Positions 1,750 to 64,000 of a stretch of 64,000 nt of DNA are shown here, piece after piece. The stretch lies in NCBI GenBank assembly GCA_964016885.1, contig OZ024762.1, forward strand, positions 24,986,001-25,050,000, written 5' to 3'. Source of the stretch: Eledone cirrhosa. Taxonomy: Eukaryota. A model generated the notes under the pieces. It made no database searches. It had not been told where the DNA came from and was given only the letters and a program-made list of their open reading frames with translations. The position numbers were made by a program, and so were the translations under genes. How positions within the stretch are numbered: the stretch's first letter is position 1; the number at the start of each line of letters is the position of its first letter.

Positions 1750-2200
1750 GCAAAAGTTCTATTTAAATTGTTGGGATACAACAAGCAAATATTTTTATAA
1801 CTGATACAAAGCACTCGACAAGTATTTGGAGTAAATATACGATATTAACAAATGGAAACTATATTTATAAAACCATATCTATTTTATTATACATATTTCA
1901 AGGATACCATGTTAAATGATGGTATGCTTTCATCAGATAAAACACAATATATACCAGTTTTATAAATAAATATTGACATACCCTTTCAAAATGCAACCGT
2001 TACTTTTTGAAGACATCTGATGTCTTCCAAAAGTAACTGTTGCATTTTGAAAGGGTATGTCAATATTTATTTATAAAACTGGTATATATTGTGTTTTATC
2101 TGATGAAAGCATACCATCATTTAACATGGTATCCTTGAAATATGTATAATAAAATAGATATGGTTTTATAAATATAGTTTCCATTTGTTAATATCGTATA
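1750..2200. mobile_element. Hammerhead-bearing fold-back element, family D (Penelope pLTR-like)
   Basis: Near-perfect palindrome 1836-2200 centred at 2018, plus a unique left tail 1750-1835. Flanked by (TA)n. Second copy at 34758-35142. Confidence 0.8.
2094..2154 (+). ncRNA. Type I hammerhead ribozyme (minimal stem III); mirror copy on - strand at 1882-1942
   Basis: UUUUAU-CUGAUGA-[aagcAUACCAU..AUGGUAUccuu]-GAAA-UAUGUA-UA^AUAAAA. Confidence 0.8.
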
Positions 2201-2935
2201 TATATATATATATATATATATATATATATATATATATATATATATATATATATATATATATATATATATATATATATGTATATATATGTATGTATATAGA
2301 CGTATATATATATCTATCTCACGCTCATGTAATATGTATATATATATATATATGTATATATATATATATATATATATATATATATATATATGAAGAACCA
2401 GCGTCCGAAACGTGTTTTCAACATAGTCACTGGAAAGAAGCAATGCAGATATTTAATACGAAGAGTTGAAATTAATGCATGCAATATTTCACAGCTCTAG
2501 CATGTCCAATTTATAATCAGCCTCCGAACCTTTCAACTCACTCTCGTAAATGCAGAGTATTTGGAAGAAAAGAGACAATACTGTTTTGTTATCATCCCTC
2601 TTGTAATAGGAGCCTTAGGAATAGTGTCAAGAAGGTTAAATGGCTGAATGGATCTGTTGGATATAGAGGTGAGTTTCGTGACTCTACAGAATACATATTT
2701 GTTTTGTAGGCAGAACAAAGAACTTTAAGAAAGAGCTAGATTGATAAGGATGAAGAAATACAGCTTCGTTGGTATCTAGTTATCAAATAACGTCGAAAAA
2801 ACAATTACAAAATGCAGAGAGAAAAATGCTGAACAACAACCACCACCACCATCACCACCACCACCACCACCACCACCACCACCACCACCACAACGACCAC
2901 CACCACAACAACAACAAGACCAACACCAACAGTAA

Positions 2936-3572
2936 CGGTTTCTGATTGAGGCACCAAGCTAACAATTTTAGGGGAAAGGGAAAGTTGATTAAACGACCCC
3001 AGTACATTACTGGTACTTTATTTTATCGACCCCGTAAGCATGAAAGGTAAAGAAAACCTCGTTCGTGATTTGAATTCAGAATGTAAAGGGGCGTAACTCT
3101 CTGCTGCAAAGCATGGTGTCTGACCCTCTACCAATACTACCAATCCACCGCCCTTAATAATGGTTTCTTATATAGGCACAAGGCCAGTAATTTAGGGGGA
3201 GGGGAAAGTCGATTAAATCGACTCCAGTGCGTGACTGGTACTTTATTTTATCGACCCCGTAAGGATGAAAGGCAAAGTTAACCTCGGCGGGATTTGAGCT
3301 CAGATCATAAAGGGCCGTAACTCTATGCTGCAAAACATGGCGTCCGACCCTCTACCGATACTGCCAATCCACCGCTCTAATAATAATAACACTTGTTTCT
3401 ATTCTTGGCACAAGCCCCGCAATTACCCCAGTGCATTACTGGTACTTTATATTTTTTGAACCCGTAAGAATAAAAGGCAAAGTTAACATCGGCGGGATTT
3501 GGACTCCGACCGTAACACTATGCTGCAAAGCATGGCGTCCGACCTTCTACCGATTCTGCCAACCCACCGCCC
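2936..3572 (-). mobile_element. Three tandem tRNA-derived SINE copies
   Basis: On the minus strand: ggcggtggattggcagtatcggtagagggtcggacgcc (A-box-like), gagttcaaatc (B-box-like), conserved core ctttcatccttacggggtcgataaa, 3' end ...ttgtgcc..gaaac(att)n. Confidence 0.85.
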
Positions 3573-3654
3573 GAATGATATTGATGATAATAATAATAAT
3601 AATAATAATAATAATAATAATAATAATAATAATAATAATAATAATAATAATAAG

Positions 3655-3900
3655 GGGTCTAATGATTACTTATCGCAAATCCCAGGAAACCCGCGTATAG
3701 GAGAAATACAAAAGATAGTACTAATGGGAACTGCCCATATACTAAGGAAGATTCTGTCAATATAAGTACATCACAAGTCTAAACACTAAAGATGCATGTG
3801 TGAGTATGTGTGTTCTTTCTTGAACATGGCGGACCTTGTTGTCTCTTGAGGTCACTGGTTGTGACTTGGTGATAACTCGTATGAACATAAAGCAAGATAA
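3655..3900 (+). mobile_element. 3' end of RLE-type (R4/Dong-like) LINE between (AAT)n tracts
   Basis: Translates to ...IPGNPRIGEIQKIVLMGTAHILRKILSI*, a typical RLE LINE C-terminus, followed by a short UTR and (AAT)n. Confidence 0.7.
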
Positions 3901-3929
3901 ATGCAACTGTAATAATAATAATAATAATG

Positions 3930-61317: not shown

Positions 61318-62233
61318 TGGCATTTGAGCCCAAGTTCAACGTAACAAATGTTTAATGACTGGCAAAGCTGGAGAGCAATTACAGGAAGATTCAGCTTCTA
61401 TTTTTAAAAACTGGGGTTAATACATAGATACCAACTTGTTGCCATGTGAATTGAGCTTCAGTTCAGCTTAACAAATGTTTAATGACTGGAAAAGTTCAAG
61501 GGCAATTAAAGGAACATTTAGCTGCTATTTTAAACTAATCAGGTGATCAAGTTGAGATCATGAGTTACCAAGGCATTTGAGTCCAAGTTTAGCGTAACAA
61601 ATGTTTACTGACTAGCAAAGTTGGAAGGCCTTTAGAGGAACATTTAGCCGCTAATTTTACCAAAGTGACGACGTTAAAACCAAGTTTGTGCAATGATAAT
61701 TGCGCTTCAGTTCAGCGAAACAATTGTTTACTGGCTTGCAAAGCTGCAGGGCAATTAGAGGAACATTTAGCTGCTATTTTTAGCAAATGGAGTAACCATG
61801 TAAAAACCAACTTGTAGCCATGGCAATTCAGTTTCAGTTCAGCGTAACAAATGTATACTCACTGGCAAAGCTGCAGAGCAATGAGAGGAACATTTGGCTG
61901 CTATTTTTAGCAAATGGAGTAACCACGTAAAGACCAAATTTGTGCCCTGTTATTTGCTTTTCAGTTTAGCGAAACGAATGTTTACTGACTGGCAAAGCTG
62001 CAGGGCAATTAGAGGAACATTTAACTACTATTTTTAGCAAACGGTGTAACCACGTAAAGGCCAACTTTGTGCCATGGCATTGCGCTTCAGTTCAGGTAAA
62101 CGAATATTTATTGACTGGCAAATCTGCAGGGCAATTAGAAGAACATTTAGCTGCTATTTTTGACAAATAGGGTGACCACGTAAAGACCAACTTGTTGCCA
62201 TGGCAATTGAGGTTCAGTTCAGCGTAACAAATG
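61318..62233. repeat. Tandem repeat, ~126 bp unit, about 7 diverged copies
   Basis: Recurring cagttcagcgtaacaaatgtttactgactggcaaagctgcagggcaattagaggaacatttagctgctattttt. Confidence 0.9.
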
Positions 62234-62999
62234 TAAAAAGATAGACCACGTTTCACAACGGTGATCATCAGTCGTCTAGTGGGTTTATTTTCGTTTTTTT
62301 TCTTCCGTATATTTCTTTTATATTTTTGTCATCAAGCAGCATGGCTTGTTTTCCCCTTTTACTACTGTGTTTGGATTTTCCCCCGCCCACTCTCTCTGTG
62401 TATATTTATATATATATATGTCTCTTTCTTTCTTTCTCTCTCTCATACACTATCTCTCTCTTTCTCTCACTCTCTCTCTCTCACCACATATCTCTCTTTC
62501 TCTCTCACTATATATATATATATATATATATATATATATATATATATATATATATATATATATATATATATATATATACTTGTTTCGCTCGATCACTATT
62601 TGTATTATTATCATTATTATTGTGTTTACTATTATTATTATTATTATTATTATTATTATTATTCAATTTGCGTTAATCAATTGTTCTACAGAGTGAATGA
62701 TTATTTGATTGATTTATCTACTTGATATATTGATATATTGATATATTGATTAGTCATTTAAACCTCGTTCGTGTTGATAGGACAACACAGGCGACATATC
62801 TAGAAAGACGGATGTTTTCACAGCTTACTGAAGACGAGAAAAATACAACACTGAAGTCTTCTCGAAAAGACAAAAATAAACGAATAAGTAAAGAAATAAA
62901 ATAAAATATAAAAATATAAAAGTATAATAGAAAATATTTAAAGAAAAAAATGTTAAGAATTTTACCTTCTAGGAGAAATATTTCTATATAACCAGGAAA

Positions 63000-63148
63000 G
63001 ATTTTGCCTGAAGATTTCGTACGAATAAAAGAGTTCTAGTCCTGTAGAAGACATTTCTATAATGAAATTAATATACCTCTACTCTACTAATGTATTGAGT
63101 ATCTTTTTTTAAGCAGTGGTCACCTCCCGATGTGCATCGGGGTTCCCT
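63000..63148 (+). mobile_element. Degenerate family C copy (decayed hammerhead and tail)
   Basis: cctgaagatttcgtacgaataaaagagttctagtcctgtagaa, then tactctactaatgtattgagta. Confidence 0.6.
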
Positions 63149-63881
63149 TATTTATATTATATGTGTGGATGGGAAAGGGGGTTTCGCTTTCTCTCTCTCT
63201 CATACTCCCAATTTTCTATGTGTGTGCCACATATGTTATAACCTCTAATGTATACCAGTCACAGGAAGTTCAGGGATTTCGTGATTAATGCAATCATCAT
63301 ACATGTTTATGTACGAAAAACCTTCGGTCTTAATTCTTTAGCATTACTCCATAGCGACACAGACTGAATGCTTATGGCGGGAGCGGAACTATTTGAATTC
63401 TGTCTCCTACCGTCATGTACATTTCTGAACCAATTGCTAATCAGTTGACGGCATTGTGATGAATCATAGGGATTTCAGTTGTTGAGGTTTTATTGTGTTG
63501 GGCCGTAACGTTCACTGTCATAGCCGACACGGACTGGAATCGAATTCTGTCGATCGATTGGTTACTGATTAGGCAGTGGATGCAGTGGATGCTGTGCAGT
63601 TTCTTGGTGCAATAAATGTGGCCGAAACTCGAGTACGAGTATAGATTGGAGGAACCCATTTACGTGTGTTGTATTGAAGCAAATAACTATGTGTATATTC
63701 TGTGATTTTACATAACATTACCTATTGAGTACACTGAGATGCAACCGGTACTAACAGGGAAACTCATGCTAGACCCGTCAACTTATATATATATATATAT
63801 ATATATATATATATATATATATATATATATATATATATATATATATATATATATATATATATATATATATATATATATATA

Positions 63882-64000
63882 AGTTTTAATATAGATGAGA
63901 TTCTACAGGACTAGAACTGTTTCATTCTTTAGAAATCATCAGAAATCTCATTCCTGATGATTTCTAAAGAATGAAACAGTTCTAGTCCTGTAGAATCTCA
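63882..64000. mobile_element. Family C fold-back element with back-to-back hammerheads (63896-63950 -, 63950-63996 +); runs off the window
   Basis: Minus strand UGAGAUUU-CUGAUGA-uuucuaaagaau-GAAA-CAG..CUG-UA^GAAUCUCA, following (TA)n. Confidence 0.82.

Follow-up and report, generated by a model that had tools for sequence, protein, structure and literature searches.

Back-to-back hammerhead inserts in (TA)n repeats of Eledone cirrhosa: probable 3′ ends of Penelope-like elements and candidate retrozymes with a common insertion footprint

Introduction

A stretch of 64,000 nt from the octopus Eledone cirrhosa (assembly GCA_964016885.1, contig OZ024762.1, positions 24,986,001 to 25,050,000 of the forward strand), referred to throughout as the window, holds many small inverted-repeat inserts with hammerhead ribozyme motifs, set in (TA)n microsatellites. 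A previous sequence-only reading named 13 of these inserts and proposed that they are either very short insertions of Penelope-like elements (PLEs) or a non-autonomous, PLE-mobilised class of ribozyme hairpins. In the present study the inserts are found to be of known kinds and abundant, with no single new class among them. The first proposal holds for families A (with its sister A′), B, E, F, G, and H and the second, as to lack of autonomy, for families C and D, but the two do not hold for the inserts as one class.

Inserts and hammerheads in the window

Self-comparison of the window identified local inverted repeats at all 13 of the named inserts, each of which fits one of eight families, A to H, with the insert at 13372 being the diverged A′. 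The description of two inverted arms is therefore correct for all of them, although the arms are asymmetric, one bearing a tail.

A strict type I hammerhead descriptor (CUGANGA...GAAA...UH with stems I-III) made 11 calls in the window, compared with 0.03 on average over 60 block shuffles, and CTGANGA occurs 45 times where 18.8 occurrences are expected. When the strict, relaxed, and U3-A8 descriptors are combined there are 16 calls, that at 35164 probably being due to chance, and about nine additional near-complete motifs are legible by eye; the previous estimate of about 20 hammerheads was thus a fair one. Three segments that had been put forward for cleavage assays, 13108-13189 (+), 15684-15743 (-), and 14178-14248 (+), are descriptor calls, whereas the fourth, 57363-57430 (-), fails the rule for the first pair of stem II, despite having stem I and the core. 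Random genome stretches yielded nine strict calls per 200 kb (shuffles 0-1) and, in a second control using the wider descriptor set, six per 180 kb (shuffles 0-2). Hammerheads above the level of shuffles are therefore a genome-wide feature, in which the window (11 in 64 kb) is about four times richer than random stretches. The (TA)n content of the window is 12.3 %, against 4.9 % in a random sample of the 3.0 Gb genome. No hammerhead was present among the 150 of 558 Rfam matches listed.

Conservation of the cores, proposed previously as a check on the hammerheads, was found in six of the eight families, where core positions are less variable than the flanks: A (0.45 % vs 3.2 %), C, D, E, G, and H, with P values that are generous because the copies of a family are not independent. 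The core is of the U3-A8 type in D, by descriptor, and also in F and, as read by eye, in G; the copies of F in the window retain the 3′ half of the hammerhead only. Cleavage is predicted throughout. Over all sampled loci there are 133 distinct hammerhead sequences with at least 15 types of stem III, mostly self-complementary (including UAUGUA, UGCGCA, UAUAUA, CUACGUAG, CUAAUUAG, CUAG, CGCG, and CCGAUCGG), and the families must therefore exceed the nine studied here.

Two fixed ends, their pairing, and the joints

All eight families have two sharp 3′ ends, a short one (S) and a long one (L), the latter being S with a tail of 56-164 nt. Among 186 distinct insertions, 88 have two classed ends, 59 are solo within 1.5 kb, and the rest have one unclassed end. 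Pairing is close to strict, with 82 of the 88 classed pairs being L+S, four L+L, and two S+S. This is also the case for C and D (20 out of 22), for the named inserts of the window (12 out of 13), for the A palindromes recovered as best matches (23 out of 23), for additional A pairs (16 out of 20, the only S+S being an inverted duplication that extends into the flanks), and for family K, as judged by eye (6 out of 6). The classed 3′ ends are followed by (TA)n in 157 of 166 instances, compared with 6 % of random positions. The (TA)n flanks reported previously are thus general, but the insert at 12672 has a left end that is cut short without (TA)n and the left end of that at 48135 adjoins (GA)n.

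Joints were mapped in the 82 L+S pairs, of which seven failed and three had large gaps, leaving 72. The S arm reaches further in 33, the L arm in 21, and both reach equally far in 18; in 10 pairs the L arm does not extend beyond the tail, so that the arms have no sequence in common. Bases are inserted at 26 joints. Microhomology is not in excess of that in simulated joints (mean overlap -0.07 vs 1.0), on which ground the annealing of cDNA ends at palindromes or microhomologies was rejected. The two arms of a copy agree at 404 of 473 polymorphic sites, compared with 60 % between copies, while 14 private variants are in both arms and 164 in one arm only. Taken with the unequal reach, this argues that both arms came from the same source element and that neither is a copy of the other.

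Inverted-junction palindromes of Penelope elements in bdelloids have been read as self-priming (PMC3846280), and one cDNA or antisense template might likewise fold on a short palindrome and copy itself. The symmetric CATATG-centred joints of some A copies (L059 and L066 among the sampled loci, which carry the prefix L), the pairs of equal reach, and the private variants common to both arms would suit such snap-back. However, the arms without common sequence are not copies of each other, so that snap-back is already contradicted for the non-overlapping pairs, and the inserted bases, the lack of a microhomology excess, and the many variants confined to one arm also speak against it. Because either arm can be the longer, twin priming on RNA is favoured, and snap-back is considered unlikely.

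Coding parents of six families

The sequence-only reading had suggested that the families be extended in search of linked open reading frames (ORFs). In A/A′, B, E, F, G, and H the longer arm copies do run into ORFs for reverse transcriptase (RT) and GIY-YIG endonuclease, with arm length forming a continuum from about 60 bp to 2.8 kb.

Families A, B, E, and F are, on their sequence, identified as the 3′ ends (pseudo-long terminal repeat, pLTR; hammerhead; tail) of autonomous Hydra-type PLEs. The first 100 matches to A include 14 head-to-head pairs separated by less than 200 nt and 13 separated by 0.7-6 kb. The long pairs enclose a 3′ untranslated region (UTR) and an RT-GIY-YIG ORF, and in one of them (L090) the arms are 2,820 bp long and 99.3 % identical. 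Full-length A has the order pLTR, tail, 5′ UTR, ORF, and partial tandems of A have the order pLTR-tail-ORF. For F there is a pLTR-719-aa ORF-pLTR arrangement (L219), and for E a 713-aa ORF directly after the tail (L228), as also for B (L223, L225); the ORF of A is in two overlapping pieces and that of B is a C-terminal half. The spacing from pLTR to pLTR, 3.1 kb (F, L219) and 4.1 kb (B, L225), exceeds the tendency of Hydra elements to be under 3 kb, due to long 3′ UTRs.

These Hydra-type proteins have a single ORF, with RT (YRDD) and then a C-terminal GIY-YIG-type motif. Those of A, E, and F are mutually 38-49 % identical. They contain DKT, a modified DKG (in B this region is outside the available sequence), and CxxC..E; the CxCX5C linker and CxH are present in all four families. 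The N-terminal RWK position reads RLRW or RIRW, followed by I, T, R, or A instead of K. A Pfam search of the Hydra-type ORFs gave a sub-threshold GIY-YIG match for E and no RT match.

The arms of G and H extend into ORFs with GIY-YIG (parents in L354 and in L370/L371, respectively), and from linker and GIY-YIG motifs these families are assigned to the 3′ ends of Neptune-type PLEs. The linker of H, CIDKKCIIC, precedes a C-terminal GIY-YIG (Pfam E 0.00096) and that of G, in a broken copy, is CGRSNCGTC; both are CX4CxxC and so within the form CX2-5CxxC.

Genome-wide exact word matches, which count arms or monomers and not insertions, number 7,822 for A, 3,838 for B, 28,076 for E, 52,348 for F, 12,884 for G, and 90 for H; reversed-word controls gave zero. 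The last 900 nt of the eight family references account for 8.9 % of the window, compared with 3.2 % and 2.2 % in two random samples, so the major genome component proposed previously is a moderate one.

It is quite improbable that the short palindromes form a separate mobile class, either a PLE-driven hairpin short interspersed nuclear element (SINE) or a DNA element resembling miniature inverted-repeat transposable elements (MITEs), spreading as whole hairpins from master loci. Short copies do far exceed full-length ones, and one A joint is present in about eight of the 23 best BLAST matches to the 28531 palindrome (L001-L027), in both orientations to the tail. However, these matches were ranked by a likeness that included the joint of the query, and in the unbiased sample the joints vary from copy to copy. 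In addition, arm lengths continue into the ORFs, the ends are unequal, unlike terminal inverted repeats, and the two arms of one copy have subfamily variants in common rather than variants specific to left or right. The mobile ribozyme hairpin class of the earlier reading is therefore not supported. Two specific forms were rejected: inheritance of whole hairpins with flipped loops, as unbiased copies show different joints, and a MITE or foldback DNA transposon, as L+S ends, variable joints, and variable lengths leave neither equal terminal inverted repeats nor a fixed unit. The recurrent A joint of the best matches may be a hot spot or reflect occasional re-copying of a whole hairpin.

Short copies and 5′ pile-ups

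The 5′ ends of the arms pile up within a 9-nt window in A (15 out of 36), B (17 out of 43), E (16 out of 28), F (21 out of 42), and G (11 out of 34). Measured back from S, the pile-up is at about 167-175 nt in A, 185 in B, 63 in E, 60 in F, and 150 in G. A TATA-like box starts 31 (E), 27 (F), and 30 (G) nt upstream of the pile-up, where chance would give one in 6 % of cases each, and from the two together a transcription start is inferred. This suggests that the short arms are cDNAs that ran off at the start from a 5′-proximal tail. In F the pile-up is inside loop II of the hammerhead, and a start there would account for the half hammerheads of this family.

Retrozyme families C, D, and K

Families C, D, and K have the character of retrozymes without long terminal repeats (non-LTR retrozymes): non-coding tandem monomers of 466-591 nt that appear to have the same insertion footprint as the PLEs. 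Exact word matches number 5,621 for D, 1,102 for C, and 11,452 for K, the count for C being from a second search word, as the first, in a variable loop, matched only six copies. Monomers are arranged head-to-tail and are of 591 nt in D, about 540 nt in C, and 466 nt or more in K. Among the first 100 matches to D there are 32 same-strand spacings of 590-607 nt, and in L363 five units face three. The proposal that C and D are non-autonomous is supported, as they are non-coding, but the unit is the monomer and not a hairpin; the fold-back would arise at insertion.

The longest stop-free frames are of 86 (D), 95 (C), and 114 (K) aa. PLE ORFs are present at 1 of 30 loci for D, 2 of 30 for C, and 6 of 20 for K, and the ones examined are separate insertions; the Hydra ORFs next to K and D arrays were rejected as parts of them, being separated by (TA)n or unrelated DNA. 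Hammerheads are present in all eight D units of L363 and in five K units of L398. In C the hammerhead is called in 4 of 30 loci and not in L364, although its core is nonetheless conserved. Within most D arrays, also across both arms, units differ at 0-2 of 591 nt, compared with 5-49 between arrays; one D unit has a 16-nt duplication. Except for one 33-nt match, C, D, and K have no DNA homology to the traced PLE parents.

Cross-family chimeras, as a pointer to the retrozyme partner, were sought among the 186 insertions and none was convincing. There is a single candidate, seen by eye at a locus outside this set, L151:834-1745, in which a tailed, inverted arm resembling B (76 % identity) adjoins a C array that ends at S, with no (TA)n between them; if a chimera, it would point to a B-type protein as the partner of C. 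Just after S, the Hydra families A, B, E, and F have an ACTC...GAGT stem followed by RC, and C has GCTC...GAGC-AC at the same place, a compensatory change (28855-28885 and 33350-33420 of the window are concerned). This stem is absent from D, G, H, and K under the same rule, and is a possible recognition element. A common tail fold was rejected on energy, with only D (z -4.9) and G (z -2.1) folding better than shuffles.

Two sequencing runs, X1 and X5, hold D as a single contig of 621 and 620 nt with ends overlapping by 30 nt, that is, a closed loop of 590/591 nt, and hold little F. This is a lead that fits circular RNA and equally a tandem array; none of the D-holding runs is listed as RNA, which speaks neither for nor against expression, and parts left uncovered in X1 and X5 are likewise no evidence.

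Local amplification of PLE terminal sequence to tandem repeats has been described (bioRxiv 10.64898/2026.07.22.740005), and C, D, and K might have grown as satellites by unequal crossover from PLE-derived seeds. This is very unlikely, since they are dispersed at thousands of places and, like coding PLEs, have S and L ends in L+S pairs, 5′ ends that vary, and flanking TA, and since the cores of C and D are conserved.

A few loci are duplicated: L082 has an inverted duplication of more than 360 bp into the flanks, and insertions are present twice within 1-3 kb at L139/L140 and L253/L256, by local duplication or assembly error. These could recall fold-back chimeras of assembly or library, an explanation with next to no probability, as the arms stop at the element ends, are unequal, and are 1-25 % divergent in old copies, and fold-back joints are also present in contigs of an independent run. 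In this run (X2, from another study) there are fold-back joints at five nearby positions and loose TA ends at both S and L of F, and the depth of the pLTR is more than 100 times that of the 5′ ORF; run X6 is similar.

Proposed mechanism of insertion

It is probable that the inserts are back-to-back, 5′-truncated copies of PLE RNA, one L arm and one S arm, twin-primed from two nicks in a TA repeat. The PLE protein, probably a dimer, would bind the tail immediately 3′ of the hammerhead and nick both strands of the repeat; reverse transcription would start at each nick from one of the two fixed RNA sites, S or L. The two cDNAs would stop independently and then be end-joined head to head. Very short fold-backs would result from use of the 5′-proximal tail of the transcript, both cDNAs running off at the start after 60-185 nt; such copies, without the TATA-like box, would be dead on arrival. 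C, D, and K, as RNAs that encode no protein but have a hammerhead and a tail of their own, would borrow the PLE protein in trans, and a circular or multimeric template would account for their near-identical tandem units.

Several observations weigh against this mechanism or parts of it. The family samples consist of the first 20-30 exact matches, all on a single contig, and at least two of the insertions in them are duplicated. For the start sites, 5′ end mapping of H gave no pile-up, A is without a TATA-like box at the expected place, and B has a box 21-22 nt upstream in only some copies (2 out of 13 matched); the search words of A and F adjoin the pile-up, so that selection may sharpen it. 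Core positions are less conserved than the flanks in B, the reverse of the other families, and the difference in F is not significant. Units differ by 8 nt in one D array and by 8-9 nt in one C array. The autonomous partner of C, D, and K was not found. Finally, the start sites used by the element PAc were not seen to differ between the top and the bottom strand (PMC11167929), and so offer no ground for strict L+S pairing.

A more far-reaching version is offered tentatively: twin priming might be obligate, a dimer clamping the tail with an active site at each edge; the swarms of palindromes (130-450 bp) might be run-off products that mark transcription starts; and unrelated circular retrozymes might mimic the tail. 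If true, this would identify both the enzyme and the start sites that underlie the mobility of animal retrozymes, and every two-armed insertion would have one long and one short end.

Other features of the window

The inserts and related features are collected below. A 200-base N gap (27328-27527) interrupts an F arm. Hammerhead-like motifs at 57363-57430 (-) and 57665-57720 (+) are within 57328-57480 and 57590-57780, which have one or no relative among the sampled loci. A 347-bp palindrome of a common SINE-like repeat (32418-32764) is between (TA)n tracts and has no hammerhead call; its relatives in 44 sampled loci match a 60-70-nt part only. Inverted arms surround microsatellites at 639-892 and 53286-54576, with no relatives among the sampled loci, the second enclosing the family I palindrome. 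A broken PLE relic of another type, 39300-42470 (-), is nested in an inverted repeat (38925-39067 / 42769-42980) and has a weak tblastn match at 40677-40949 and, by eye, a GIY-YIG-like stretch.

Also identified were a decayed element resembling long interspersed nuclear elements at 6900-12250 (+), with endonuclease and RT stretches by eye and an inverted partial copy at 4223-5452 (-) of 71 % identity, and, by eye, a decayed non-LTR retrotransposon-like ORF at 23000-26400 (-). One SINE-like repeat of about 220 bp, some copies of which are tandem, is at 2937-3572, 5483-5678, 17098-17196, 20694-21102, 31289-31407, 49360-49457, and 55377-55605.

Hammerhead-bearing inserts and related features of the window. 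Assignments are those proposed in the text; strand is given in brackets.
Feature	Position	Hammerhead	Remarks
Family B head-to-head pair (Hydra-type PLE 3′ end)	1753..2199	1880-1944 (-), 2092-2156 (+)	Left arm inverted, tailed (L); right arm to S; parent ORF in L223/L225
Family C, non-coding ~540-nt tandem retrozyme	12669..13352	13108-13189 (+); degenerate counterpart on - strand	Right arm to S; left arm 62 nt short
Family A′ (sister of A)	13368..13694	13500-13565, near-complete	Short inverted S arm and direct arm with tail (L)
Family A L+S pair (Hydra-type PLE 3′ end)	13847..14293	13971-14041 (-), 14178-14248 (+); palindromic stem III UGCGCA	Parent in L090, L105, L107
Family F solo arm	14399..14463 (-)	3′ half	Ends at S
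Repeat outside named families	15587..15830 (-)	15684-15743, full	Relatives in 18 sampled loci
Family A fragment pair	16315..16446		Inverted arm piece and tail; arms without common sequence
Family E S+L pair (Hydra-type)	18139..18305		Tail deletion; parent ORF in L228
Long A′ copy, 5′-truncated	18319..21548 (+)	21434-21503, in pLTR 21374-21547	Inverted tail 18319-18374; broken RT-GIY-YIG ORF 18382-20163; 3′ UTR with inserted SINE-like copies; S end, then (TA)n
Family F piece (second)	27301-27327		Runs into N gap
Family F pair	27926..28056		Inverted S arm and tail piece; arms non-overlapping
Family A S+L pair	28521..28941	28566-28636 (-), 28747-28817 (+)	
Family D S+L pair, non-coding 591-nt tandem retrozyme	32887..33507	32962-33051 (-), 33179-33268 (+); U3-A8, palindromic stem III CUACGUAG	
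Family B L+S pair	34762..35149	Mismatched at stem II base	
Family F L+S pair (Hydra-type)	45580..45765	3′ halves only	Parent L219
Family E solo arm	45828..45955 (+)	45828-45876	Ends at L
Family F L+S pair	47510..47702	3′ halves only	
Family G pair (Neptune-type PLE 3′ end)	48135..48437	~48200-48240 (-), U3-A8	Left arm 10 nt short of S; right arm to L; parent L354
Family K piece (additional)	~48459-48782		
Family H L+S pair (Neptune-type PLE 3′ end)	48885..49233	49028-49075, degenerate	Parent L370/L371
Family I palindrome	53721..54102		Relative in L378: ~800-nt tandem units with U3-A8 hammerheads
3′ end of another Hydra-type PLE	57840..58530 (+)	58394-58435, hammerhead-like	GIY-YIG piece, 3′ UTR
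Family K L+S pair, non-coding 466-nt tandem retrozyme	58552..59093	58844-58886	
Family E S+L pair	63876..64000	63895-63951 (-), 63950-63996 (+)	L end just past window edge

Comparison with known systems

The Hydra clade consists of PLEs with a C-terminal endonuclease, RT then GIY-YIG, in few families, including Hydra-1_Obim of Octopus bimaculoides (PMC8557442), which the A, E, and F proteins resemble when compared by eye. Families A, B, E, and F have in common with this clade DKT, CxCX5C, CxxC, CxH, a type I hammerhead, (TA)n, partial tandems, an adjacent inverted copy, and a tail at one end (PMC8557442). They differ from the published description, as far as its available text goes, in that the Octopus family is without a defined pLTR, whereas here there are at least four families with 3,838-52,348 exact matches each; units are of 3.1-4.1 kb, tails of 68-84 nt instead of 30-40, and RWK reads RW(I/T/R/A).

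Inverted pLTR insertions with a tail on one arm have been reported (PMC3846280, PMC8557442), as have dual minimal hammerheads on opposite strands, 100-700 bp apart, that were ascribed to truncated PLEs, together with the U3-A8 core variant and palindromic stem III (PMC4209133). In canonical PLEs the tail is described as optional (PMC3846280, PMC4209133), whereas here the pairing of one long with one short end, the two-way asymmetry, and the 5′ pile-up are quantified. The origin of inverted and tandem PLE structures has been named an open question (PMC8557442). For PAc, a Poseidon element of Anolis carolinensis, both strands were nicked and extended in vitro, with two RT starts bounding the tail, an AT-rich target, and a predicted dimer (PMC11167929). 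PAc is of a different clade from the Hydra-type elements, and inverted products and second-strand steps are not addressed in the available part of that account.

Metazoan non-LTR retrozymes are non-coding monomers with one type I hammerhead each, found as monomers to multimers, for which a PLE origin has been proposed (PMC7229834; bioRxiv 10.64898/2026.07.22.740005). C, D, and K have longer monomers, 466-591 nt compared with the 150-450 quoted for retrozymes, as well as minimal cores of PLE type, head-to-head arrays, and two fixed ends in (TA)n. The published link between PLEs and retrozymes, in the text available, is co-occurrence and pLTR homology; here there is an identical footprint without DNA homology. 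In the literature consulted, which most subscription papers were outside, no description was found of L+S pairing that is close to strict, of 5′ pile-ups read as run-off, of retrozymes sharing the PLE footprint, or of head-to-head retrozyme arrays. A 2026 annotation of Octopus vulgaris lists 31 active Penelope-like families, and the word 'ribozyme' is absent from its available part (PMC13282606).

Families D, F, G, and I, with the U3-A8 core, are missed by searches for CUGANGA only, and annotation may wrongly class 2-3 % of such a genome as MITEs or simple repeats. What is added to the known systems is a quantified footprint by which PLE integration and retrozyme mobilisation become testable. 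The nine families together provide over 120,000 exact matches to arms or monomers, along with ORFs that look intact and start sites defined to the base, with which twin priming, run-off, and mobilisation in trans can be investigated.

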